Origin: a virus
IMG/VR virus record: IMGVR_UViG_3300027432_000003
Coordinates: 1-39,237 of that record
Reading direction: 5' to 3' (one strand)
Length of the DNA stretch: 39,237 nt
A program made the position numbers and the translations under genes. This document shows positions 13,030 through 38,236 of the stretch, piece after piece. The notes beneath the pieces are model-generated. The model made no database searches and was not told the DNA's origin. It saw only the letters and a list, made by a program, of their open reading frames with translations. Position 1 is the first letter of the stretch, and each line of letters starts with the position of its first letter.

Positions 13030-13605
13030 TTAATTTGGTTCGATTGGCTCGGTGGCGTTTGTTGCGCGGACGTACAGCGTCAGATTTAAAACATCCTCCC
13101 AAAAAGTTCCATCGGACGAGGCATCGCCAGAGCCGCCCTCAAATACAACCTCGTCGCATTTGAATAGATTCAGGTCGCCGTTGGTGTCCGGTTCAGCGGC
13201 GGCCAGCGTTCGCGCGGCCGATGTGATGTTGTCGGCCAGTTGGGTGTTGTCGGCGTCAACGATGTCAGTGAAAATCAAATCAAACACCTGCGCCACAAAT
13301 TGTTCGCTCGCCAACCGTTCAGATTGCGGACCTGCATTCTGGGGTTGAATCGATCCTGGCGTTTTGCAAACAATCCGCGTTTCGACAAGGTATCGACCGG
13401 GGTTGGCGTCATCCCGCACCCACCGAACGCAATCGCAAATCACCAGTCCGTTGTTGACGGTTTTGTCTAAAGAAAATTTGACCGGAAACACGGTTGTTTC
13501 GTCAATAAACGGTTGCTGGCCTTGTGGCGCGTTCGCGGCGGCTGATTGAACGAGATAGGTCGCGCAGGCGCGGGCGGTCTTGGAAAGCAGATTGTGATAG
13601 CTCAT
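13030..13605 (-). CDS. Hypothetical head-tail connector or tail-terminator candidate
   Basis: 191-aa ORF. The call rests on position only. Confidence 0.5.
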   Translation of the reverse strand: MSYHNLLSKTARACATYLVQSAAANAPQGQQPFIDETTVFPVKFSLDKTVNNGLVICDCVRWVRDDANPGRYLVETRIVCKTPGSIQPQNAGPQSERLASEQFVAQVFDLIFTDIVDADNTQLADNITSAARTLAAAEPDTNGDLNLFKCDEVVFEGGSGDASSDGTFWEDVLNLTLYVRATNATEPIEPN

Positions 13606-15678: not shown

Positions 15679-15704
15679 GTTGGGTGTCAAAGTTGGGTGT
15701 CAAA
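15679..15704. repeat. Perfect 13-bp tandem duplication (GTTGGGTGTCAAA x2). Each copy reads TTGACA on the minus strand.
   Basis: 15679-15691 equals 15692-15704. It lies in the 41-nt spacer between the capsid ORF and gene 15017..15664. Confidence 0.9.
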
Positions 15705-17734: not shown

Positions 17735-19526
17735 ATTGACCGCCTTCATGCGGTTCGCCGTTGGCTCTAAATCGTCCGTGCGCTTCAATCGCCCGCAGCA
17801 TCAATTCAATCGCCCGCAGCATCAATCCGGTGGCGTCATGCCCATTGCCGTTCGTGGCGGATTTTTTCAAAGTTTGCTTGCCGCCTTTTTTGGCGGGCGG
17901 CGACGGCGGTTGCGCGCCTTCCTCCGGGTTGGGAATGCCCTCACCTGGTTCTCCTTTTTGAATCGTCGGAGTCGTAGGGTCGGAACTTGAAAAATCCAGT
18001 CGATGCGCTTCATCAACTTTTTTGTCACTGGCGATTTCCGAATCAACCTGCTCCACGTCCCCGCCACGGTCGCTCTCGGCTATGATGCGCGAGCGGGACG
18101 TGAGACCGGCCTCGATGCGGAGAATGTCCGCCTGCGCGTCCTGCAATGGGTTGATGTAGCCCCACCGCTTTCCGTGAAAATGCGCGGCGCGGATAAGCTC
18201 ATCCAGCCGGGAGATCGGCTGCTTGACCTTGCCGGACAGAATCGCGTATTTCAGCCAGACGGAAAAATGCGGGCGCACGAGATTTGTGATCAGGTGCTTT
18301 TGCAGTTTTTTGAACTGGTCGCGCTGCGCGGATTCGCCGAGTCGTCCGCTTGAAAAATTAACGCTCTCCAAATCGTTGCCCAAAAGATGATATGAAATTC
18401 CAACGCCACCAGCCACGGAACGAAGATTTTGTTTTGTAAAATTAGGATACGCCTCGACCGGATGTTTTGGGTCGTACTCTTTGAAGTCATACCCATCCGG
18501 CAGCTCATCAAAAGTTCCCGGCGAAGCCTGCATCTGTTTGCCGCCCTGTTCATCCTGCACGTCCCCGGCGTATTCGTCGCCGGTCTTTTCCTTCGTGAAA
18601 AATCCCATTTTACAAGCGGCGACAATCGCCGCCGTCATCTCGGCAATATCGTACTGGTCGAGGCGGTGAAGCCGCTGCACAATCGGCGCAAGTGACGACA
18701 TGCCGATATATTGCTCCGGGCGCGTGCGAATGTTCCAAAGCGCGATTACGTCGACGGCGTCAACTCGCTCGCGGTATCTCGGCGAATTCGACCACGCGAA
18801 CACGTCGCCCGGATGACGGGTCAACAGCCAATAAGCCACCGGCGCGTGGTATTCATCCATTTCAATCGAGAATTGAATTTCATTGCCGCTGCCGGTCGCC
18901 GGTCGATTCCAGTTGTAATCAAGGTGATCACTTTCCAAAACTTCAACCGCGTATCGAAATTCATTTTTTGGAAAATTCCGGTAATGGCGGATGATGATCC
19001 CGCCATCGCGGATGACCGCTGAAATCGCCTGCCAGTACATTTCCGACCGGCTGATGGTCCGGCGAATGGTGCAATTTTCCGGCAACGCCGCCTCTTTCCA
19101 GGCTTCCTCAATTTCCCGGTTCGTATCGGTTTCCTCAACGAACGCACCGTCCACAAGCTTTCCGACCTTCATTTCCAACCGAAACGGGTCATCACCAACC
19201 ACATTGTTTTGGTGGGCGTTGATGATGGTCGTCACATACGGGTTGTCCCGCTCCAGCCGTCGCGCGCGGCTGCGCGTTGCCATGATGGAAACCAAAATTT
19301 CAGCGTTGCTGCTGGTGATCGAAATTGGGAAATCCTCATTTAGCCGGGAAGTGACGGCGGCGTCATACATGCGGACCTTTTGCCGTGGGACATGCCGGAT
19401 GATGTCCGCGTCACCGGGCTTCACTCTTCTTGAATCGAGCAGACGCCCACCCGTCCGGGCCAGCGATGCCGGCAACGCGCGGACCTTCGGCTTCGACGCG
19501 TGGAAAAGTTCAAAATTAAATTTCAC
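17733..19526 (-). CDS. Portal protein (lambda gpB family)
   Basis: 597 aa. RSRARRLERDNPYVTTIINAHQNNVVGDDPFRLEMK and the overall pattern resemble lambda-family portals. The gene lies between the terminase and the protease. GTG start at 19526. Confidence 0.8.
   Translation of the reverse strand: MKFNFELFHASKPKVRALPASLARTGGRLLDSRRVKPGDADIIRHVPRQKVRMYDAAVTSRLNEDFPISITSSNAEILVSIMATRSRARRLERDNPYVTTIINAHQNNVVGDDPFRLEMKVGKLVDGAFVEETDTNREIEEAWKEAALPENCTIRRTISRSEMYWQAISAVIRDGGIIIRHYRNFPKNEFRYAVEVLESDHLDYNWNRPATGSGNEIQFSIEMDEYHAPVAYWLLTRHPGDVFAWSNSPRYRERVDAVDVIALWNIRTRPEQYIGMSSLAPIVQRLHRLDQYDIAEMTAAIVAACKMGFFTKEKTGDEYAGDVQDEQGGKQMQASPGTFDELPDGYDFKEYDPKHPVEAYPNFTKQNLRSVAGGVGISYHLLGNDLESVNFSSGRLGESAQRDQFKKLQKHLITNLVRPHFSVWLKYAILSGKVKQPISRLDELIRAAHFHGKRWGYINPLQDAQADILRIEAGLTSRSRIIAESDRGGDVEQVDSEIASDKKVDEAHRLDFSSSDPTTPTIQKGEPGEGIPNPEEGAQPPSPPAKKGGKQTLKKSATNGNGHDATGLMLRAIELMLRAIEAHGRFRANGEPHEGGQ
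17784..17825. repeat. Perfect 21-bp tandem duplication inside the portal 3' end (encodes LMLRAIE twice)
   Basis: 17784-17804 equals 17805-17825 (TTCAATCGCCCGCAGCATCAA). Confidence 0.95.
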
Positions 19527-23358: not shown

Positions 23359-23382
23359 TGGTTGTTTGGTTGTTTGGTTGTT
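23359..23382. repeat. Perfect 8-bp x3 tandem repeat (TGGTTGTT)
   Basis: 23359-23366, 23367-23374 and 23375-23382 are identical. The repeat lies in the 41-nt intergenic spacer. Confidence 0.9.
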
Positions 23383-23398
23383 TCATTTTCATACAGCG

Positions 23399-27107: not shown

Positions 27108-27815
27108 TCATAGCAGCACGCCTTGGTTTGCCTCGCGTTCCAGACGGGAGCAGGCGGATGCAAAATATTTTGGGTCTTTTTCGATGCCTATGAAATTCCG
27201 GCCCGTGCGCAGACAGGCTACGCCGGTTGTCCCGCTTCCTGTAAATGGGTCGCAGACCAAGCTGCCTTCATCCGCAAATACCTTTACCTGCCGGATCATC
27301 AAGTCTATCGGTTTTGGTGTCGGATGGTCAGGACTTGACTGCACTCCGAACAAATGGAACTTGTTGTAGGCTTCGTAAGGCAGCCCCTTCGCTATAAAAC
27401 TTTCTCCCGGTCTGAACAGCCGCAGGCAGAGTTCGGTGTCGGACATCATCTTTCCGTTGTAGTTCGGGATGGCGTTGGGCTTGTGCCAATACATCAAATC
27501 CCAGCCGAGGCCATTTGCTTCGGCCAGCTTCAAATAGGTCGGCAGCAGCTTTTGCGAGAACCACACGATGAGATTCTTGCCGAACATTGGAAGCACGGCG
27601 TTGAAGAATGCCTCGGGTTCAAAGTCAGTCCCAAAGCTTTCGCGGATGGTGTCGAGGTGTGTGCGAGTTCGGTAGAGTCCCCCGCCTTTGCTTTCAAAAT
27701 TATATGGCGGGTCGGTTATCACGGCATCAATGCCAGCCAGCGACGGCAGGATTTCCAGACAGTCCCCGTTGTAGAGTGTCGCTGAAAAATGACCCCTAAC
27801 AAATCGCTGGAACAC
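27108..27815 (-). CDS. DNA amino-methyltransferase A (N6-adenine/N4-cytosine, beta class)
   Basis: The DPPY motif (AVITDPPYNF) precedes the AdoMet motif (VCDPFTGSGTTGVACLRTGRNFIGIEKD). GTG start at 27815. Confidence 0.85.
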   Translation of the reverse strand: MFQRFVRGHFSATLYNGDCLEILPSLAGIDAVITDPPYNFESKGGGLYRTRTHLDTIRESFGTDFEPEAFFNAVLPMFGKNLIVWFSQKLLPTYLKLAEANGLGWDLMYWHKPNAIPNYNGKMMSDTELCLRLFRPGESFIAKGLPYEAYNKFHLFGVQSSPDHPTPKPIDLMIRQVKVFADEGSLVCDPFTGSGTTGVACLRTGRNFIGIEKDPKYFASACSRLEREANQGVLL

Positions 27816-27972
27816 AACGGCGGGAGTTCCTGCCGTTCGTTCGCTGGTTGTGATTTATTGCGTCATTTTTATTCGCCGCCGTGGTTCAGCTCTGCGTTAG
27901 CTGGCTTGGCCACGTCTATGATTTTACGCTTATATCGCGGGAGCTTTTCGAGCGAGTCCACCTTGCCGCGAG

Positions 27973-28194
27973 CTATCTGCGTCGAGTTTCCTTTTTTGTC
28001 CCTTGCGTCTTGGCGTATTCCAGCCATTGATTTGCGAGATCGGTCATTTCTTCGCCAGTCAGATTCACGCACTTGTCCGGCTCGCTGGCATCTTCGAGCG
28101 CGAACAGTCGGTTGTGGACGGGCAGCGTTGAGTCAGGCTCGATTTCATAGACCTGCTGCGCGCCGTGAGTTTTGGTTGTGATTATCAGTTTCAT
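27973..28194 (-). CDS. Small hypothetical protein (73 aa)
   Basis: MKLIITTKTHGAQQVYEIEPD... ATG 28194 overlaps the stop of the Dam-type gene as ATGA. It contains the heptamer A_AAA_AAG near its 3' end. Confidence 0.55.
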   Translation of the reverse strand: MKLIITTKTHGAQQVYEIEPDSTLPVHNRLFALEDASEPDKCVNLTGEEMTDLANQWLEYAKTQGTKKETRRR

Positions 28195-28856
28195 GGTGCT
28201 GTGTTTCCGCCGCGTAAGTCCACGAAGCAGCCAGCCAGTCGGCCATGCTGCACCGCGTCCCAGAGCGCATTTGCGTTTTCGTCGTCCCACGTCACCAGCA
28301 TGGAGGGCGCACCGGCTGTCCCGCCTTTCGTGCCGTTGACGTGATAGAATGAGAGTCGGCCTTTCAGGAAGCAGACTGCCGTGGCTTTGCCCCAGATGTA
28401 GTCGAAGAATTGGCGCGTCTCCGTTCGTGCGAAGATAAGCGCGGTTACATTTTTGTGCGCGCTGCATCGCCCCATCCACTCGCCGGTTTTCGGGCCGTAA
28501 GGCGGATTGCACCACACGCGACCTGACCACGGCTTGATGAGTCCGTTGTCCTCGATGGTGTAGTGCGCCTTCGCCGTTTCCCACGGGCGTTTGATTGGAG
28601 CGCACGGGTCGAGGTCGAACGGCCACGGAACTTCCTCGCCATCTTCCCGCGTTTGTTCCAGCGCCTTGATTATCTGTGGGGGTGTCAGCCATTCCTCTTT
28701 GCCGTTTTCGAGATCACGGTCATGCGCGAACCCGATGCGTTTTTCTTCATTCGACGGGACGGCCAACAATTCCTTGCAGACAACCGCCTCATCGCTACCA
28801 GTTTTGGAGTAGCGTGTTTCGGCGGTCGCTGCGGGTTTGAGAAAGTCAGTTTGCAT
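28191..28856 (-). CDS. Phage Dam-type DNA N6-adenine methyltransferase
   Basis: EWLTPPQIIKAL, FDLDPCAP, WSGRVWCNPPYG, FARTETRQF and LKGRLSF follow the pattern of the phage N-6-adenine-methyltransferase family. Confidence 0.85.
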   Translation of the reverse strand: MQTDFLKPAATAETRYSKTGSDEAVVCKELLAVPSNEEKRIGFAHDRDLENGKEEWLTPPQIIKALEQTREDGEEVPWPFDLDPCAPIKRPWETAKAHYTIEDNGLIKPWSGRVWCNPPYGPKTGEWMGRCSAHKNVTALIFARTETRQFFDYIWGKATAVCFLKGRLSFYHVNGTKGGTAGAPSMLVTWDDENANALWDAVQHGRLAGCFVDLRGGNTAP

Positions 28857-28890
28857 ATTGTCGGCGGTGTCTGAAGTCAGTCGTTAGGGG

Positions 28891-29592
28891 TCACAAGAGC
28901 ACCCCATCTAGTTCGTGTGCGAAGCGGTCACACGCCAGTTTGTAGTATTCAGCATCCCGCTCGATGCCGATAAAGTTCCGCCCCGTTCTCATGCAGGCGA
29001 TGCCGGTGGTTGCGCTGCCCATATACGGGTCGAGCACTGTCGCGCCTTCTGGGATTCGCGCCTTTTCCATACACCACGCCATCAGCGGCACTGGCTTTTG
29101 GGTCGGGTGGCATTTGTCGGTCTGGTTGTGCTTGTGGATTGCGTAGGGATACACTTTCGCCGTCACGCCTTCCGCATCGCACCATGCCAGTTCAGCATCC
29201 GCGAAGTTGTCCACCGTCTGCATTTTATACCACACGAAGAAGCATTGCGACGGCGGCAGCACCATGTTGTTTGCGCCCCATATCACGCGCACAGTTCCGA
29301 GAGTGAGCAGCAGTTCCATCATTTCTTGCGGCGGTTTCTTGTCCCATTGCAGCCCGTTGGTTTCCGCTCCGTAGCCCTTGAATCTGGTCGTGAAGAAGCC
29401 TTTCTCGAAGCGTTTGATTCCATACGGCGGATCAGTGACCACGGCATCGCACTGCATTGGCAGCACCTCAGAGCAGTCGCTATGTATAAGAGTCGCAGAC
29501 AAGTGACCCCTAACAAATCGCTGGAGCACAACACCGCCCCCGCTCTTGGCTTCGGCGGGCGTCTCTGGTGGTAGTGTGTCGGTCGTGCTCAT
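28891..29592 (-). CDS. DNA amino-methyltransferase B (paralogue of A with a different central region)
   Basis: AVVTDPPYGI ... LDPYMGSATTGIACMRTGRNFIGIERD. It shares LQRFVRGHxSATL and the C-terminal ...GVLL with MTase A. Confidence 0.85.
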   Translation of the reverse strand: MSTTDTLPPETPAEAKSGGGVVLQRFVRGHLSATLIHSDCSEVLPMQCDAVVTDPPYGIKRFEKGFFTTRFKGYGAETNGLQWDKKPPQEMMELLLTLGTVRVIWGANNMVLPPSQCFFVWYKMQTVDNFADAELAWCDAEGVTAKVYPYAIHKHNQTDKCHPTQKPVPLMAWCMEKARIPEGATVLDPYMGSATTGIACMRTGRNFIGIERDAEYYKLACDRFAHELDGVLL

Positions 29593-29630: not shown

Positions 29631-30221
29631 TTAGGACACTTGGCCTTCACATTGTTGCCACGCCTCATTGACTCGCCGGAATAATTCAGCATCGCCGCCA
29701 AGGTCGGGGTGGTGTTTCTTTGCAAGTATCCTGTATGCCTCTTTGGCCTGATCTTTGGTAGCGTTGATTGGCACGCCGAGGGTTTCCCACCAGCTTGATC
29801 CGCCAGCGCGTTCTGGCAGCGCGACGTAGCCTCGGAAGGCCGATTCCATCATGTCGCCAGTTCCCCAGCGGGCGATGCCACGCAGGGCTTGGACGGTGAG
29901 CGCGATGGCGTGCATGTTATCATCCACCGTCAGGTAGCGGTCGCACGCGAAGCACAGTTGCTTGCCCTTGCGGTTGAAGTAGGCGGCTATGCCAGGATCA
30001 CCCGACTTCGGTTTCGCATCGGCATACGGCAGCCCGTCTTGGCGGCGCGGAATGTCAGACGAGAAGATGCAGTTGTCGCCGCCGATCAGTTTAATTTCGC
30101 GGAGAAGATTCGTGCGCGCCGCCGCAAATGAGGTTTTGAAGCGGGCGTGGCATCGGTTCATCGGCGCGGTGCGCGGACGACCGTCAGGCCAGCAGAGCGG
30201 GAAGGCTGTTTTTTCATTCAT
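29631..30221 (-). CDS. J-domain (DnaJ-like) protein with an unknown N-terminal domain
   Basis: The C-terminal WWETLGVPINATKDQAKEAYRILAKKHHPDLGGDAELFRRVNEAWQ carries the HPD tripeptide. Confidence 0.8.
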   Translation of the reverse strand: MNEKTAFPLCWPDGRPRTAPMNRCHARFKTSFAAARTNLLREIKLIGGDNCIFSSDIPRRQDGLPYADAKPKSGDPGIAAYFNRKGKQLCFACDRYLTVDDNMHAIALTVQALRGIARWGTGDMMESAFRGYVALPERAGGSSWWETLGVPINATKDQAKEAYRILAKKHHPDLGGDAELFRRVNEAWQQCEGQVS

Positions 30222-30818: not shown

Positions 30819-30846
30819 TTGACAATTTTCCGTTCCCGTGTATTTT
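30819..30846 (+). promoter_or_regulatory. Sigma70-like promoter of the early-right operon
   Basis: TTGACA (30819-30824), a 16-nt spacer, then TATTTT (30841-30846). ATG 30857 follows 10 nt later, so the leader would be very short. Confidence 0.5.
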
Positions 30847-30856
30847 CAGACCAGAC

Positions 30857-31054
30857 ATGGCAAAACAAAAAGACAAATACACTCAGTTAGCCGATGACCT
30901 GGGCGCGCTTAAAATTGGAGATTATTTATCTCGCGCGATCAATCTCGAAATGCGGCTGGCCGCTTACACGGCGTCGAAATTCCTCGGCATCAAGCTGCGC
31001 ATCCGAGAGATTCCGCTCCAAAAAGGCCGTTTCCAAGTTATGAGGATCGCATGA
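30857..31054 (+). CDS. Hypothetical small protein (65 aa)
   Basis: MAKQKDKYTQLADDLG... It is the first ORF after the promoter. Confidence 0.5.
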   Translation: MAKQKDKYTQLADDLGALKIGDYLSRAINLEMRLAAYTASKFLGIKLRIREIPLQKGRFQVMRIA

Positions 31055-31137
31055 AACAATTCGCGTTCGATATGCTCGGTTGTTTGTTCATGGCCGTCGC
31101 GCTCTACGTTTTAACCGTCGTTTTTTTCGTTTTATAA
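31051..31137 (+). CDS. Tiny hydrophobic peptide (28 aa, single TM)
   Basis: MKQFAFDMLGCLFMAVALYVLTVVFFVL. Its ATG overlaps the upstream TGA as ATGA. It is below the ORF-track length cut-off, so I translated it by hand. Confidence 0.35.
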   Translation: MKQFAFDMLGCLFMAVALYVLTVVFFVL

Positions 31138-31146
31138 AATAAAAAT

Positions 31147-32085
31147 ATGTGTCAATTCAAATCAGCAGTTGTCGTTCGTGACGAAAGAGAAAAAGGTGGC
31201 TTCCGACTTTTGTTATCGCCTTGGACGGAATCGCATTCCGTTTTGGAAACAATCTTCAAGATAAATGAGCGCGTGCGTCTAATCTGCGCCAAGGTCGAGT
31301 TCTCGCCGGATGACATCACTAATGCTCACCTGATTGAGAAATACAAACTCAAAATCGATGAGGAACGGACCCCGGAATGGTTTGACGACGATATGAAGTT
31401 GAATGTTTCCGAAAAACTTTCCGATTACATAAAAAACATAATTGTGACGGGGGACGTGGACATTCTGATTGGCGGCCAGTTCATAGTTGCTCCCGGCTGT
31501 AAAGTGTCGTGCGTGCGGACGTGTGTAATCTCTGCCGTACTCGGCAACGCGAGCATCACCGACGTGCGGGACAACGCGAGCATCACCAACGTGCGGGACA
31601 ACGCGAGCATCACCAACGTGCGGGACAACGCGAGCATCACCAACGTGTGGGACAACGCGAGCATCACCGGCGTGCGGGGCAACGCGAGCATCACCGGCGT
31701 GCGGGACAACGCGAGCATCACCGGCGTGCGGGGCAACGCGAGCATCACCAACGTGCGGGACAACGCGAGCATCACCGGCGTGTGGGGCAACGCGAGCATC
31801 ACCGACGTGCGGGGCAACGCGAGCATCACCAACGTGCGGGACAACGCGAGCATCACCGGCGTGCGGGACAACGCGAGCATCACCGGCGTGTGGGGCAACG
31901 CGAGCATCACCGACGTGCGGGACAACGCGAGCATCACCAACGTGTCGGACAACGCGAGCATCACCGGCGTGTGGGGCAACGCGAGCATCACCGACGTGCG
32001 GGACAACGCGAGCATCACCGGCGTGTGGGACAACGCGAGCATCACCGGCGACAAACGCGCCAAAAAAATAAAATTTAAACTATGA
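31147..32085 (+). CDS. Nonapeptide tandem-repeat protein: a ~130-aa N-terminal domain followed by 18.8 copies of [D/G]NASIT[N/D/G]V[R/W/S]
   Basis: 312-aa ORF. The repeat is in frame, and the protein ends in a basic tail, DKRAKKIKFKL. Confidence 0.75.
   Translation: MCQFKSAVVVRDEREKGGFRLLLSPWTESHSVLETIFKINERVRLICAKVEFSPDDITNAHLIEKYKLKIDEERTPEWFDDDMKLNVSEKLSDYIKNIIVTGDVDILIGGQFIVAPGCKVSCVRTCVISAVLGNASITDVRDNASITNVRDNASITNVRDNASITNVWDNASITGVRGNASITGVRDNASITGVRGNASITNVRDNASITGVWGNASITDVRGNASITNVRDNASITGVRDNASITGVWGNASITDVRDNASITNVSDNASITGVWGNASITDVRDNASITGVWDNASITGDKRAKKIKFKL
31543..32049 (+). repeat. 27-nt tandem repeat, 18 full copies plus one 21-nt partial copy
   Basis: I counted the units by hand (31543, 31570, ... 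32002, partial 32029-32049). In every copy 22 of the 27 positions are invariant. Confidence 0.95.
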
Positions 32086-32267
32086 AATCCATTTCGTTCG
32101 CCTCGCACAAACCGCCTGCATCGGCTGAAATCAGACTGATAGGCAGCGCGGAGCGGACGTTTCGCCGGTGCCGCCGTCTGCCGAGACTCTTGGGGTCAAA
32201 GCGATCCTCGCGGGGCCGGCGATAATTTTATGAACAAACAAATTATGATCAAAACGAAGTAGAGTTT

Positions 32268-33104
32268 ATGAACACGTTGAAGACGGCCAAACAGCATAAT
32301 GCCGTGTTGACCGGCGAATCGGAGTTGCTTCCAATGATAAGCGGCCCGCGTGAGATTGCAAAGCCGGTTGACGCCGCATTCAACTTTGAATCGGCGTTTC
32401 GTTACGCCGTGGACAAGGGCGGTGGTAGCGAGGTTATGAACACGCTGATGAACATCCGGCGTGAGCTTAACGCCGAGGCCAGCAAGAAGGCGTTCGACCA
32501 GGCTCTTTCGGCATTTCAAGCCGAGTGCCCGATTGTGCTGAAGGAAAAGGCCGTGCCGACAGAGACGGGCAAAACCGCCTACAAGTACGCGCCGATTGAG
32601 GCCATCGAAATCCAGATTCGCCCTTTGCTTCGCAAGCACGGATTCAGTCACACGTTTGACACTGACACCACATCCGCGCAGGGATGGGTCATCGCCAAGT
32701 GCATTGTGACGCACCCCGAGGGGCACAGCCGAACCTCAACGGCCAAGTTGCCATTGGGGACCAAGACCAAGATCATGTCCGACACCCAGGTTTACGCTTC
32801 CGCGCTCACCTTCGCCAACCGCCGCGCTCTTTGCAACGCCTACGGTTTGGTATTGGCCGGTGAGGACATGGACGGTCAGACCGGAAAGCTGAAGGGTTCG
32901 ACAACGGGAAAAGTCGCCACGGCGGAAACGTTGCGGTGGTTTCTTGACCAAACCGCCGACATCAGGGAGAAGCAATTTGCCTTTGCCATTGACCACGGCC
33001 TGATTGAACCAAATGACACTCTGGACAAATGGCCGCTCGCCAGAGTGCCGACTTCAAAGGCGGAACTGGCCGCAATCAGGAAGGAGATTGAAGCCCATGT
33101 TTAA
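32268..33104 (+). CDS. erf: Single-strand annealing protein (Erf family)
   Basis: FDQALSAFQAE...GKTAYKYAPIEAIEIQIRPLLRKHGF...TQVYASALTFANRRALCNAYGLVLAGEDMDG follows the Erf pattern. Confidence 0.7.
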   Translation: MNTLKTAKQHNAVLTGESELLPMISGPREIAKPVDAAFNFESAFRYAVDKGGGSEVMNTLMNIRRELNAEASKKAFDQALSAFQAECPIVLKEKAVPTETGKTAYKYAPIEAIEIQIRPLLRKHGFSHTFDTDTTSAQGWVIAKCIVTHPEGHSRTSTAKLPLGTKTKIMSDTQVYASALTFANRRALCNAYGLVLAGEDMDGQTGKLKGSTTGKVATAETLRWFLDQTADIREKQFAFAIDHGLIEPNDTLDKWPLARVPTSKAELAAIRKEIEAHV

Positions 33105-34367: not shown

Positions 34368-34473
34368 ATAACTGCGAAGAATGTGGATGGCCTGAACCGT
34401 TGGTATTATTGCTGGCGTGCTCTACTGCGAGGAATGGTATAGAAATAAATATCCTAGAATCGGAGGTGGCGCG

Positions 34474-35145
34474 GTGACTGCTGAACTTTCAAAATCACCA
34501 ATTCGTAGAAGGCTAAAATCAGCTGCGATGCTATTGGTAACAATATCCGTTCTCGGGGTTACAATTTCTGGCACTTTTTGGATGAATAGCTTTGAGCGGA
34601 AGATTATAGCCACAGAAAAGCAATCAAGTGAACTAGCCCAGTCTATAAAACAGATTGATGATCGAACTTTTAACATCGAAAAACAGTTTTCTGATTTTTC
34701 GAGTCCCAGCCTTCATTGCTCTGTAGTTCAGGGGGCAATTTTGCAATCCTATCAGGGCAGCGTTCCCAGGATTATTTACAAACTAAAGGTTGTTAACAGT
34801 GGAAGCCCCTCAATTGCCTGGAGATGGCACCTTGTGGTTACTCTCACCACTGGTCAAAATATAGATGTTGACGCAAGTGAGAATCCAGCCTCTGAAACAG
34901 TCGTAAATCCGCCACCAAATGGGCCAAGTATTTTTGACAACAGTAATTATTTACCAAACACATTACTTGAAAATCCAATCGCAACAGGCGCAGGAAAGGC
35001 TGGATGGGTAGGATTTGAGATGAACACAGCGACAGCGGACGATCTGGTTCGCATCGGAAATCAATTAGTGCTTTCATTTGAAGATTGTAAGGGAAACGTA
35101 ATTTCCATCACTAACGTCCTTACAAAGGCGGGGGGGCAATTTTAA
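34474..35145 (+). CDS. Membrane-anchored protein encoded in an AT-rich segment (moron candidate)
   Basis: GTG 34474 is preceded by GGAGG. It has an N-terminal TM segment, AAMLLVTISVLGVTISGTFWM. A sampled 60-nt line gave about 38% G+C, against about 63% in a line from the capsid gene. Confidence 0.55.
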   Translation: MTAELSKSPIRRRLKSAAMLLVTISVLGVTISGTFWMNSFERKIIATEKQSSELAQSIKQIDDRTFNIEKQFSDFSSPSLHCSVVQGAILQSYQGSVPRIIYKLKVVNSGSPSIAWRWHLVVTLTTGQNIDVDASENPASETVVNPPPNGPSIFDNSNYLPNTLLENPIATGAGKAGWVGFEMNTATADDLVRIGNQLVLSFEDCKGNVISITNVLTKAGGQF

Positions 35146-35203: not shown

Positions 35204-36188
35204 GGGAAGGAATATCCCCAAGCCAGCAAGCATCATTTCCACGCCGTCCTAAAATCTATGGTTTCGGGAACTGCGAAACCAAAGCGGGGAACATCGAAGA
35301 AGCGTTCCCGCGCCGATTGAAGCGGAACTCAAATTCCTTTGCGTAGTTATGAAGATATTGTTTGGAAACATGAATGTGAGTGCCACGGATGCCACCCTTG
35401 AGGTGTTTCCAAAAGTTTTCCAGATTGTTGACATGCGTATCGTTCAAAACGTATTCGTGCGCTCCGTGATTCACAGTCTTGTGGGTGAATCCTTTTTTCG
35501 CCAGACCCTTGTAGGAACGCAATTCGTCAGTGTGAACCGTAGAACCTTGTGCGACGTTTTCCTCAATGATTGGCTTCAAGGTTTTGCCCGCGACATTCGG
35601 AACAACTTTCGTCATCACTTGGCCCTTGCGTTGCAGCATTCCAAACACAATCGTTTTGTTCGCTGCTCCGCGTCCGCGAACTCCGTGCGTGCGACCGCCG
35701 ACATAGGTTTCATCAATTTCAACGTCACCAAACAGCGGGAACTCTCCGTCAACCTGCTCCATGTGTTCGCGGATTTTATGACCCATGCGAAACGCACATT
35801 TGTAAGTCACGCCAAGTTTCCGCATCAATTCCATGGCGGGAACGCCGTGGCGGGAAGTGGTGAAAAGGTAAATGGCGTAAAACCACAGTTGCATTGGCGT
35901 CCGGCTATCCTCAAACAGCGTTCCGGCTGTCGGGTGGATATGGTGACCGCACCACTGGCAGGCATAAGCGCGAACCTTGCTCATCCTCGACCAATTGGAT
36001 TTCTTGTCGCACTTCGGGCATTTGTAGCCCTGTCCAAAACGGCTGTCGAAAACATGTTGGATGCAAGTCTCGTCATCCGGGAACATTTCGTAAAATTCCT
36101 TAATCGTCAGGCTGGCTTTCTCGTTTCTGTTCTTCATGCCCCAAATATACACCCAAAGGCGTACTTACGTCAAGGGGATAATTCCGGG
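35204..36188 (-). mobile_element. IS1595-family element 1 (boundaries approximate)
   Basis: The right end, CCCGGAATTATCCCCTTGACG (inward reading, 36169-36188), is homologous to the IR of element 2. The left-end candidate GGAAGGAATATCCCCAAG (35206-35223) matches it only imperfectly. Confidence 0.4.
35256..36137 (-). CDS. IS1595-family DDE transposase (copy 1)
   Basis: Zn-ribbon CPKCDKK...CQWCGHH, HTH-like MELMRKLGVTYKCAFRMGHKIR, VEIDETYVGG, and a DDE_Tnp_IS1595-like C-terminal part. I chose ATG 36137 by analogy with copy 2. Confidence 0.85.
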   Translation of the reverse strand: MKNRNEKASLTIKEFYEMFPDDETCIQHVFDSRFGQGYKCPKCDKKSNWSRMSKVRAYACQWCGHHIHPTAGTLFEDSRTPMQLWFYAIYLFTTSRHGVPAMELMRKLGVTYKCAFRMGHKIREHMEQVDGEFPLFGDVEIDETYVGGRTHGVRGRGAANKTIVFGMLQRKGQVMTKVVPNVAGKTLKPIIEENVAQGSTVHTDELRSYKGLAKKGFTHKTVNHGAHEYVLNDTHVNNLENFWKHLKGGIRGTHIHVSKQYLHNYAKEFEFRFNRRGNASSMFPALVSQFPKP

Positions 36189-36238
36189 TTGTTATGACAA
36201 TCTTGCAAGATTATGGCATTTTTTAGACACCCATCTTT

Positions 36239-36262: not shown

Positions 36263-36370
36263 GCTTGACGCGGGGCAATGGGGTGAGGCATGATTCGCCT
36301 AGATGCAGAACTGTACGGCGAAACCTCGTTCAAAGAATGGGCCTCCCTGTTCTCTGGAAAGTATTTCGTT

Positions 36371-37141
36371 ATGATTGTCATCTATGCAGATGAATCTGGA
36401 ACGCACGACCCAAATGGAAAGCTAACCGGTTCTGCATATCCCATTATCGCCGGATTCGCCGCCAGGAAATCTGTTTGGGATAAATTCTGTGTTGGGTGGA
36501 AGGCTGTTTTGGATAAATATGACGCTCCATACTATCACGGCAGGGAATTAACAACGGCCAGAGTGGCGGTTTTGGAAAACAGAAAAGAAAATAAAGAATT
36601 ATCAAAAAATCCGTACTATATTCGGAAGTGGGATTTTAAAAAAATCGAGTCGTTCAGAAAATCTTTAGCAAAGGTCGCATCCGCAGATGGTAAAATTCCA
36701 ATCGTCGGCGGAATGCATCTAACAAATTTTAACAAAATCAAGGATGAGTTTTCGGATAAAGACCCATATAAATGGGTCATGAGTCATTTTTTCTCTGTGT
36801 ATCACAAGGAAACAGGGCTTCAGTGGGGAAATTTCAAATCGGATGTTACTTTTGTATTTGACCAAAACGAAAAACGAAAATGGGTTAATTCTGTTCATGA
36901 AGTATTCGATGCATACCAAAAAAAAGACCCAAGAATGTCCGGTCCGAATTTTGGTGATAAAAAGAAATTTCCGTTTTGGCCACTTCAAGCTGCCGATTTT
37001 CTTGCCTATCGGATGAGGCAATTGGCGGAGGACAACGATAGTGGCCAATTACAAATTGATGAAGTGGACCGTATTCTTCTTAAGAATCTATATAAAAGCG
37101 CAACAATCATAAACCCTCAACTAAAACCATTCTTAAAATGA
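36371..37141 (+). CDS. DUF3800-family protein (passenger gene)
   Basis: The N-terminal MIVIYADESGTH and the C-terminal FWPLQAADFLAYRM fit the DUF3800 pattern. A sampled line in this gene gave about 32% G+C. The ORF track starts at 36290. Confidence 0.7.
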   Translation: MIVIYADESGTHDPNGKLTGSAYPIIAGFAARKSVWDKFCVGWKAVLDKYDAPYYHGRELTTARVAVLENRKENKELSKNPYYIRKWDFKKIESFRKSLAKVASADGKIPIVGGMHLTNFNKIKDEFSDKDPYKWVMSHFFSVYHKETGLQWGNFKSDVTFVFDQNEKRKWVNSVHEVFDAYQKKDPRMSGPNFGDKKKFPFWPLQAADFLAYRMRQLAEDNDSGQLQIDEVDRILLKNLYKSATIINPQLKPFLK

Positions 37142-37276: not shown

Positions 37277-38236
37277 TTACGCCGCTTGCCACGTCCCTGC
37301 TTCCGGAAGTCCGCCAATGAGTTTGGCGTACTGGAGCCGACGACCAATGATGCCGATGATGCCTTTCAGGAATCTGCCGGAATCAGTGTTCTCACGCTCA
37401 TTAAATCGGAACGCTTGCTCGTCGAGGTAACGAAACAAATGAAAAGGTTCAACGCTGATATATGTCCCGCGAATCCCGCGCTTGAGCAGGCTCCAAAAGT
37501 TTTCCAGCCCGTTGGTGTGGACATTGCCGCGAACATATTCCTTCGCATGGTCAATCGCTTGGTGAACGTAATCCTGACTCAAGCCATTGTACGAGGGAAG
37601 CGCATCGGTGAACACCTGCGAGCCGGTTTCAACTTGCTGGCGAATTTCAGTTTGAAGGATATTGCGGCGAGCTTTTGCAACGTGCTTCAGTTTAATTTTT
37701 CCACCCCGCTGCAAAAGTCCCATGACAATCTCTTTGCCGGTTCCACCCGTTCCGCGACCGCGCTTGCTGCGTTGCGCGTTGTTCATGCTGCGGGCCTTGC
37801 CGCCGATGTAAGTTTCATCCGCTTCCACTTCGCCGGACAGTTTGTCCATGCTGCCGTTCTGCATCGCCAGCCGGATACGGTGAAGCATGAACCACGCTGT
37901 CTTTTGGGTGACGCCCAAGGCGCGGCCAAGCTCGCACGAACTGATTCCGTTCTTCGCGTTCACAATCATCCAGAATGCAGGCAACCATTTGTCCAGCCCA
38001 AGGGGACTGTCCTCGAAAATGGTGCCAACCTTGACGGAGAATTGTTTCTTGGTGTCGCGGCATTTCCAGATTTTGCGCGTCTCAAGGAAGGCGACGTTGG
38101 ACTTTTGGCAGCAAGGACAAACCACCTTGCCGTCAGGCCAGCGAATCGAAACCATGAACTGCAACGCCTTGTCGGCATCCGCGAAGTATTTAATTGCGCC
38201 GCTCAGCGTCTCGGGAAACTCGTTGTTTTCTTTCAT
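37277..38236 (-). CDS. IS1595-family DDE transposase (copy 2)
   Basis: CPCCQKS...KCRDTKKQFSVKVGTIFEDS, GISSCELGRALGVTQKTAWFMLHRIR and VEADETYIGGK. By eye it is only distantly similar to copy 1 at the protein level. Confidence 0.85.
   Translation of the reverse strand: MKENNEFPETLSGAIKYFADADKALQFMVSIRWPDGKVVCPCCQKSNVAFLETRKIWKCRDTKKQFSVKVGTIFEDSPLGLDKWLPAFWMIVNAKNGISSCELGRALGVTQKTAWFMLHRIRLAMQNGSMDKLSGEVEADETYIGGKARSMNNAQRSKRGRGTGGTGKEIVMGLLQRGGKIKLKHVAKARRNILQTEIRQQVETGSQVFTDALPSYNGLSQDYVHQAIDHAKEYVRGNVHTNGLENFWSLLKRGIRGTYISVEPFHLFRYLDEQAFRFNERENTDSGRFLKGIIGIIGRRLQYAKLIGGLPEAGTWQAA

Follow-up and report, generated by a model that had tools for sequence, protein, structure and literature searches.

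A homogenised repeat array set between a Met-Cys head and a basic tail in a protein of a phage early operon

What kind of protein is encoded by a phage gene that carries near-identical 27-nt units in tandem, and why should these units differ from one another at only a few fixed positions? The question is raised by a gene at positions 31147-32085 of the IMG/VR virus record IMGVR_UViG_3300027432_000003, of which the whole stretch of 39,237 nt (positions 1 to 39,237, hereafter the window) was analysed. Judged from the sequence, this repeat gene is a real coding gene of the phage early operon, and its array is only the middle portion of a conserved protein that begins with a Met-Cys head and ends in a basic tail. 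The reading that we favour, with a probability of about 0.5, takes the product for a cytoplasmic accessory protein of early infection with a three-part architecture, in which a binding rod would place a cysteine-bearing head on its target. The parts of the gene are as follows (ORF, open reading frame; pI, isoelectric point).

31147..32085, plus strand: repeat gene, a complete ORF of 312 aa (33.7 kDa, pI 5.8)
31147..31452, plus strand: N-terminal head domain, residues 1-102, predicted by AlphaFold2 as strand-strand-helix-strand-strand-helix
31453..31542, plus strand: three degenerate, non-homogenised nine-residue cap rungs, ILIGGQFIV, APGCKVSCV and RTCVISAVL
31543..32049, plus strand: homogenised repeat array, 18 full 27-nt units and a 21-nt partial unit
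32050..32085, plus strand: basic C-terminal tail DKRAKKIKFKL (residues 302-312, pI 10.6) and stop codon

The sequence-only reading of this locus had described a tandem 27-nt array, varying at five nucleotides only and lying in frame within the gene at 31147-32085, and each of these points was recovered here, the coordinates being those of the 312-aa ORF and the array being coding and in frame. Tandem Repeats Finder returned a single array at 31545-32047 (period 27, 18.6 copies, 92% matches, score 817), and splitting the ORF in frame from 31543 gave 18 full units followed by a nineteenth, which leaves the repeat after 21 nt and runs into the tail. Across the full units, only nucleotides 2 (A/G), 19 (A/G), 20 (A/G), 25 (C/T) and 26 (G/C) vary. 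They belong to codons 1, 7 and 9, and the unit encodes [D/G]NASIT[N/D/G]V[R/W/S], as had been read; there is no synonymous variant among the 18 units and each change alters an amino acid, in agreement with the absence of synonymous drift claimed earlier. The 21-nt core pattern was matched 19 times in the window, always within the array, compared to 0.01 expected from shuffles. Eight unit types follow one another in irregular order, with long Arg runs, and the longest exact repeat inside the array, of 73 nt, recurs after 81 nt, the length of three units. A loose higher-order pattern with Trp recurring every second to fifth unit had also been proposed; it survives as the trace of a block duplication, to which the 73-nt repeat attests, and fails as a periodicity, the Trp residues standing in units 4, 9, 13, 16 and 18 with no fixed spacing. 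The Trp ladder that had been envisaged must be given up, given this irregular placement and the lack of any W-W excess at lags 1-6 over 89 family arrays. The base composition of the array is distinct as well, with a GC content of 67% and a GC content at third codon positions (GC3) of 100%, as against 46% GC in the region upstream that encodes residues 1-132 and a GC3 of 51% in the first 100 codons.

The full-length protein was modelled by AlphaFold2 with 29 homologues, a check that had been proposed together with the idea of a beta-solenoid, and the model reached a predicted local distance difference test score (pLDDT) of 94.4 and a predicted template modelling score (pTM) of 0.88. Over residues 133-301, each nine-residue unit is modelled as one five-residue strand (positions 4-8) and one four-residue turn (positions 9, 1, 2 and 3), giving a solenoid-like stack of about 19 array strands in addition to the cap rungs. 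The latter occupy the N-terminal end of the solenoid, with strands at 103-108, 111-114, 119-124 and 127-131, so that in this high-confidence model the array forms a beta-solenoid rod beginning with three fixed cap rungs. When the full model was compared with the PDB by Foldseek, only weak matches were obtained (template modelling score, TM, <= 0.35), every one of them a protein with a parallel beta-helix or solenoid fold, among them polysaccharide lyases, pentapeptide repeat proteins and an RTX block, and in BFVD, which holds viral structures, the single good match was an uncharacterised Siphoviridae fragment. Positions 3 (Ala/Ser/Gly), 5 (Val/Ile) and 8 (Val/Met/Ile) of the unit keep their character family-wide and are therefore probably inward-facing, whereas positions 4, 6, 7, 9 and 1 probably point outward. 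Residue chemistry further suggests that positions 1, 7 and 9 are solvent-exposed corners; position 9, mostly Arg or Trp, falls in the modelled turn. The isoelectric point changes along the protein, from 5.4 in the head and 4.5 in the array to 10.6 in the tail. Known families gave little at the level of sequence: a Pfam search of the whole window protein at E <= 10 returned only TRL, at 19 bits and below its cut-off, NCBIfam and PADLOC gave no meaningful match, PHROGs matched weakly and on the repeat region only, to unknown-function or tail-fibre-like families, and no PDB sequence was found with profiles of the whole protein, the head, the relative P0101 or the window solenoid region of rungs, array and tail.

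The head was aligned in 32 diverse sequences spanning 24-67% identity to the window protein, with the window sequence as profile seed. In this alignment M1, C2, S6, H30, E51, P76 and W78 are invariant and F4, T27, D71 and E72 near-invariant, as are L107, G109 and G110 of the cap rungs. The window gene itself begins ATG-TGT, with an in-frame stop three codons upstream. Across 15 loci, the start codon stands directly before the Cys codon (ATG in 12, GTG in one, ATT in two), and in nine of them an in-frame stop lies 2-12 codons upstream of it; Cys also occupies position 2 in 125 of 141 further family representatives, the remainder of which look like miscalled starts. By these counts, the Met-Cys start of the family is real. 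The two loci with ATT before the invariant Cys codon, L003:6001 and L005:677, have a strong GGAAGG Shine-Dalgarno sequence ahead of it, and the window and most other homologues have A-rich leaders without a Shine-Dalgarno sequence. Few chemistries are known to demand a Cys exactly at the N-terminus, the established users being N-terminal nucleophile (Ntn) hydrolases and SRAP-type thiazolidine formation, and for this reason we infer that the N-terminal Cys of the head serves as its nucleophile or as the site of a covalent attachment. A model of the head alone, built with 95 sequences, obtained a pLDDT of 89.5. Foldseek found nothing significant for it among PDB folds (best E 0.63, TM < 0.3), and no sequence match was found in the PDB, Pfam or NCBIfam.

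How widespread is such a protein? A word-indexed search gave 99 homologues that share the head at 60-65% identity, a level that in independent homologues holds over residues 1-133. An exhaustive search with a head profile returned 2,329 clusters at 50% identity with E <= 1e-3; tightening to E <= 1e-10 left 1,132, and the matched domain almost always started at residue 1. Only three matches occurred in 185,579 species genomes, in metagenome-assembled genomes of Chthoniobacteraceae, Paceibacterota and Elusimicrobia; GenBank phages yielded one weak, unannotated head match and no relative of the structural module. Where the context of relatives could be read, they lie on phage contigs, among small early genes and DNA-metabolism genes. 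Behind the conserved head, nine-residue units are commonest, with eight-residue GGTVSAI[C/R/W] and seven-residue GTVTxNY units also found, and other relatives have super-repeats of 18 or 27 residues. Arrays resembling pentapeptide repeats (ANLKS, ADLSG), recognised by eye without a Pfam scan, accompany the Met-Cys head in P0144, P0154, P0157, P0173 and P0202. Measured arrays have about 2 to 19 units, and counts by eye reach about 30. In all nine complete ORFs examined, the frame continues through the array into a conserved tail. The C-termini of relatives read NDKRxKK, DDRKK or DNRPKK, and of 214 family proteins, many of them truncated, 93 have a D.R motif within the last 30 aa. On the other hand, [GD]NATIQ[ND]V[RW] repeats with the same variable positions are also joined to unrelated end domains, DUF7666 and a domain beginning MKTFKEFK, in P0096, P0105 (L022 8001-8792), P0097, P0100 (L021 8001-8810), P0103, P0109 and P0112; the repeat gene of L022 sits in a phage-like replication and recombination block, and that of L021 in an apparent integrated mobile element. 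Several unit types behind one head, and the same repeats with unrelated domains, mark the solenoid array as a generic, interchangeable module. The window protein itself combines the three marks of the family, namely the head profile residues, a homogenised array and a D-x-R motif with a Lys/Arg-rich tail (C-terminus GDKRAKKIKFKL). Such a family, with a Met-Cys head, a predicted beta-solenoid array and a basic tail, is undescribed in the libraries searched, and our literature search on it found nothing relevant, the beta-flower paper (PMC10584680) aside.

Why, then, is variation restricted to a few codons? Thirteen arrays were scored at the DNA level, and in all ten that were printed unit by unit, the DNA of the units differs solely at the codons that correspond to 1, 7 and 9 (6 and 8 in eight-mers). 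Synonymous codon choice differs between homologues, for example ACG/TCA in L002 and ACC/AGC in L004, and is fixed throughout each array, which points to concerted evolution by unequal recombination or slippage. These comparisons establish that the array evolves in concert and that its unit number changes readily. The variant codon alleles of the 13 arrays comprise 59 nonsynonymous and one synonymous, where about 27% synonymous would be expected (binomial P = 2e-7), and most are one-nucleotide neighbours (CGG/TGG/TGT, GAC/GGC/AAC, GCG/GAG). Entropy computed within proteins peaks at positions 1, 7 and 9 in 76 nine-mer proteins (0.78, 0.99 and 1.17) and is near zero at positions 3, 5 and 8; in 59 eight-mer proteins the maxima are at positions 6 and 8 (0.97 and 1.38). 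The last position of the unit is Arg in 31-35% and Trp in 25-26%, followed by Tyr, Cys, Gly, Ser and Leu. A nonsynonymous excess at fixed positions within an otherwise homogenised unit indicates that amino-acid diversity is actively retained, in other words selection for diversity. The order of the variants is another matter. In 89 arrays compared with within-array shuffles, W-W, R-R, same-residue and aromatic-Arg pairs were neither enriched nor depleted at lags 1-6 (|z| <= 2.3), and these lag statistics rule out a regular Arg/Trp zipper or alternation. Over the arrays of the window and L001-L017, mean GC is 64.7% in the array vs 49.0% in the head and GC3 82.5% vs 60.7%, GC3 being above that of the head in 12 of 13 loci; such enrichment is compatible with frequent, possibly GC-biased, gene conversion in the homogenised repeats.

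The window as a whole is a tailed-phage genome or prophage, with genes for a large terminase, portal, major head protein, tape-measure-like protein, DnaB and DNA methyltransferases. The repeat gene stands near the start of a rightward operon, which opens in a divergent intergenic region where a promoter match lies, and it had been placed in the early operon just before an erf-exonuclease pair. This placement was verified, with the addition that a 47-aa ORF intervenes before Erf.

30819..30846, plus strand: sigma-70-like promoter match (TTGACA, 16 nt, TATTTT), 10 of 12 consensus positions, a consensus match only
32082..32225, plus strand: 47-aa Arg-rich ORF, the ATG of which overlaps the TGA of the repeat gene (ATGA)
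32268..33104, plus strand: Erf-like single-strand annealing protein (PHROG 155, E 2e-27; Pfam ERF on the identical gene of contig L020)
33097..34050, plus strand: PD-(D/E)xK exonuclease, exonuclease VIII/DUF3799-like (PHROG 412, E 2.5e-46; Pfam DUF3799)

The ATGA overlap may reflect translational coupling of the 47-aa ORF to the repeat gene. Directly upstream of the repeat gene, at 31051-31137 on the plus strand, lies a strongly hydrophobic micro-ORF of 28 aa (MKQFAFDMLGCLFMAVALYVLTVVFFVL), whose ATG likewise overlaps the TGA of the preceding ORF (ATGA); as a family feature it was rejected, comparable ORFs being present in two of 14 other loci. On the minus strand, three DNA methyltransferase genes stand in a row at 27108-29592, two N6_N4_Mtase and one Dam-like (Pfam on the identical L020 genes), next to a DnaJ-domain protein at 29631-30221 (minus strand, PHROG 9210), and together these genes facing the repeat operon look like an anti-restriction or accessory block. 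Further downstream, two ORFs at 34417-35145 and 35349-36197 gave no family match, a nearby 283-aa ORF at 36290-37141 (plus strand) matches DUF3800 (E 9e-7), and a 319-aa ORF at 37277-38236 (minus strand) carries domains of IS1595-family transposases (DDE_Tnp_IS1595, E 1.5e-41, with its zinc ribbon), by which an insertion sequence is recognised inside the phage genome or at its edge. Tandem Repeats Finder also reported four short duplications of two to three copies elsewhere in the window, at 17784-17826, 15679-15704, 13215-13254 and 23359-23383, with periods of 21, 13, 18 and 8, respectively.

In the reading that we favour, each of the three parts would have its own task. The head, an alpha/beta domain of about 100 residues, would be the active part, its N-terminal Cys exposed by removal of Met and accompanied by the invariant Ser6, His30 and Glu51, so as to act as a nucleophile or covalent-attachment residue. 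The rod would offer its edge, decorated with Arg, Trp and acidic residues, for the binding of a macromolecule of host or phage, and specificity or avidity would depend on the kinds of variant unit in the array and on their number. Its tandem nine-residue units turn over by unequal recombination or slippage, with variants kept at codons 1, 7 and 9. A short Lys/Arg-rich C-terminus after the D-x-R motif completes the protein. By positioning the Cys head on its target early in infection, the rod might serve host takeover, anti-defence or support of the neighbouring recombination. Several observations weigh against this picture. The head matches no known family by sequence or fold (Pfam, NCBIfam, PDB, Foldseek), and the mildly acidic array (pI 4.5) argues against simple polyanion binding. 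The order of Arg and Trp is indistinguishable from random, which fits a generic sticky or soluble surface equally well. No neighbour gene is conserved over 19 loci, occasional Erf or exonuclease genes aside, so that neither partner nor target is readable from the context. Moreover, the same phage is represented by contig L020 with only 2.6 units, and if this short array were real, rod length would not be critical.

The main rival, a serious if unlikely one, regards the rod as a passive spacer or oligomerisation scaffold, with function residing in head and tail. Variability at positions 1, 7 and 9 would then serve folding and solubility, a mixture of Arg, Trp and acidic residues averting like-charge ladders and out-of-register aggregation with no binding specificity. 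The random Arg/Trp order at every lag, the interchange of 5-, 7-, 8- and 9-residue repeat types behind the same head and the wide range of unit number all suit a spacer, and so do the acidic residues at positions 1 and 7 that flank Arg at position 9 in family arrays, as expected of local salt bridges. However, with such a design R-R pairs should be too few and R-aromatic pairs too many at the stacking lag, and neither is observed; the window array has long Arg runs. In addition, a quarter of the last-position residues would be exposed Trp, a burden on solubility that is more usual in binding surfaces. Strong selection is shown by the 59:1 nonsynonymous excess, yet this does not separate a spacer from a binding rod. 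A different proposal, for which we see only a small chance, makes the protein an accessory of the neighbouring recombination module: a protein similar to single-stranded DNA-binding protein (SSB), an inhibitor of RecBCD like Gam or Abc, or a shield for DNA lesions, in which single-stranded DNA or a host nuclease would be bound along the Arg/aromatic stripe of the rod and the N-terminal Cys would react with DNA. SRAP/YedK proteins form thiazolidine links at abasic sites with an N-terminal Cys, a His and a Glu as catalytic residues, and the same set is invariant in the head. Downstream, the window and its duplicate L020 carry Erf, as do L004 and L011, and a second neighbour cluster, probably exonuclease-like, is present in L004, L011 and L012; relatives or repeat-module proteins occur in blocks of replication or recombination genes, with DnaB, DnaG, RecA, Mre11/Rad50-like proteins, DUF3799 and methyltransferases; no SSB was identified among the window proteins scanned. 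Against this, the Pfam scan at E <= 10 found no SRAP or glutamine amidotransferase family, the best 50 of 165 weak Foldseek matches of the head included no YedK/HMCES or Ntn hydrolase, the head has about 100 aa vs about 220 in SRAP domains, and the array is acidic. The linkage to Erf and exonuclease is not conserved either, early regions being generally rich in DNA-metabolism genes, and a tie to this module would rest on loose synteny and on the identity of the conserved residues.

Other explanations concern the array itself rather than its role. It is quite unlikely that the array, or its length of 18.6 units, is an assembly artefact, be it an expansion or a heterogeneity collapsed to an arbitrary path. 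An argument for this comes from L020, an ENA contig of 11,024 nt from a different sample (MEGAHIT k141), which represents the same phage (three mismatches over 11 kb) and has a repeat gene of 168 aa, the exact in-frame difference being 432 nt, or 16 units. In addition, homologous arrays are interrupted by the contig end in four IMG/VR contigs (L003, L007, L009 and L013, the last with ambiguous bases within its array), a 15-billion-protein collection does not contain the exact 312-aa protein, and no further assembly of the locus was found in IMG/VR or JGI metagenomes. However, the L020 array consists of unit 1, a unit equal to unit 4 and the start of unit 5/19 joined to the tail, that is, with units 2-4 merged and 5-19 merged, and thereby follows exactly one of the shortest paths that the repeat graph of the long array allows. 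Collapse is thus the simpler reading, the alternative needing two separate real deletions, and L020 is likelier to be a collapsed assembly than the window an expanded one. Every k-mer of at least 77 nt in the window array is unique, beyond the longest exact repeat of 73 nt, so that ordinary 150-nt reads could resolve it, and the irregular order of eight unit types is unlike assembly-graph looping. Such arrays are present in most examined members of the family, and for one array, of 16 units, the encoded protein is identical in three IMG/VR contigs (L006, L008 and L010). The expectation that this would be a site of copy-number change is supported by the differing unit numbers of homologues, the 2.6 units of L020 being most simply a collapse; the unit numbers recorded in databases are unreliable, since short-read assembly breaks off in arrays of this type or collapses them. 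Very improbable is a role of the repeats as DNA, such as origin iterons or a recombination or packaging signal with a secondary coding appearance. Nineteen near-identical direct repeats in an early region, with 67% GC vs 46%, might invite this thought, and an origin within a gene has precedent among phages, as in the lambda O gene. Nevertheless, the amino-acid pattern at positions 3, 5 and 8 is kept while the DNA units differ, the frame runs through to the conserved tail in every complete ORF examined, variation is nearly all nonsynonymous and at specific positions, and a structure is predicted with high confidence. Scarcely credible, finally, is a diversity-generating retroelement (DGR) or similar targeted hypermutation. 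Confinement of variation to few nucleotides, several involving A in AAC/GAC codons, does recall DGR variable regions, but neither the window (A<->G, C<->T and G<->C) nor the relatives (C<->A, T<->G and G<->T) show adenine-specific substitutions, and the differences distinguish tandem units rather than a template from its target. Given these mixed substitutions, the lack of a template copy of the unit elsewhere in the window and the lack of a reverse transcriptase among the window ORFs scanned, the DGR mechanism was rejected.

Whichever task the rod performs, neither Pfam nor NCBIfam includes this family, which comprises over 2,300 clusters at 50% identity and unites three things in an unusual way: a fold-orphan head with an obligatory N-terminal Cys, an interchangeable repeat type and a nonsynonymous excess at fixed positions. 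If the rod is indeed a programmable binding surface, it would constitute a new recognition scaffold, and if the head is an enzyme, it would represent a new N-terminal-Cys catalytic or covalent-capture domain acting early in phage infection.

How does this protein compare with known systems? Pentapeptide repeat proteins (PF00805; MfpA, Qnr, AlbG and HetL) also consist of short tandem repeats, which in them build a right-handed, four-sided beta-helix rod. Four such proteins (6fls, 3du1, 2xty and 2xt4) are among the weak Foldseek matches (TM <= 0.27), and the A-S-I-T-x of the window unit resembles A-[DN]-L-x-x, so the unit could be a 5 + 4 pair of faces. Membership of PF00805 was rejected on the period of nine and the lack of a Pfam match at E <= 10, and nothing points to a gyrase or DNA-mimic role, the window array being only mildly acidic. 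The YdcK repeat (PF18836) is also a short-period beta-solenoid; the relative P0101, with GNATVSDVY units and a divergent Met-Cys head, reaches 46 bits, above the cut-off of 30, and P0103, P0105 and P0108 score weakly, whereas the window protein has no match at E <= 10 and was not assigned to it. RTX nonapeptides (GGxGxDxUx) form a beta-roll and share the period of nine, 7rah_E being among the better Foldseek matches, with a probability of 0.89 and a TM of 0.31. RTX membership was rejected, since the window unit lacks the calcium-binding GGxGxD consensus, having no GGxG and no conserved Asp at position 6, and in contrast to RTX proteins, the window protein has five-residue strands, no secretion signal and a place in a phage early operon. 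The 5-fold beta-flower (PF21785) is a closed antiparallel barrel of about 100 residues (PMC10584680). Relatives with eight-residue units (GGTISDIR) match PF21785, only P0084 above the cut-off (43.6 vs 38 bits), and these matches probably reflect repeat composition; the window protein has no match, and its about 19 array strands, in a family of open-ended unit number, are at odds with a closed barrel of about 10.

For the head, the closest parallels are SRAP/YedK/HMCES and Cys-Ntn hydrolases, which likewise place Cys at position 2 directly before the first strand, together with an invariant His and Glu. Homology to SRAP (PF02586) or Cys-Ntn proteins was rejected, as no such entry was found by Pfam, by PDB sequence or among the best 50 of 165 weak Foldseek matches of the head, and the head is about half their size. 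For the array, it is the transcription activator-like (TAL) effectors that carry the same signature of near-identical DNA units differing at fixed codons, with nearly all differences nonsynonymous. TAL effector units are helical hairpins of 33-35 residues with a demonstrated one-repeat-one-base DNA code, whereas the units here are nine-residue strands in random-looking order. Beta-solenoid rungs are spaced at roughly 4.8 Å, and in a speculative and decidedly improbable extension of the analogy, the array would be the beta-solenoid counterpart of TAL effector (TALE) or PUF repeats, the order of its variants encoding recognition of a periodic ligand and thereby guiding the Cys head. Residues 7, 9 and 1 of each rung (Arg, Trp, Tyr or Cys with Asp, Asn, Gly, Glu or Ala) would read an extended nucleic acid, a glycan or a filament, on which the head would act or to which it would attach covalently, and thousands of phages would be rewriting this code by unequal recombination. 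Tandem-repeat beta-solenoids under concerted evolution are already known, and what is new in this family is the head domain together with a restricted variability that resembles that of TAL effectors.

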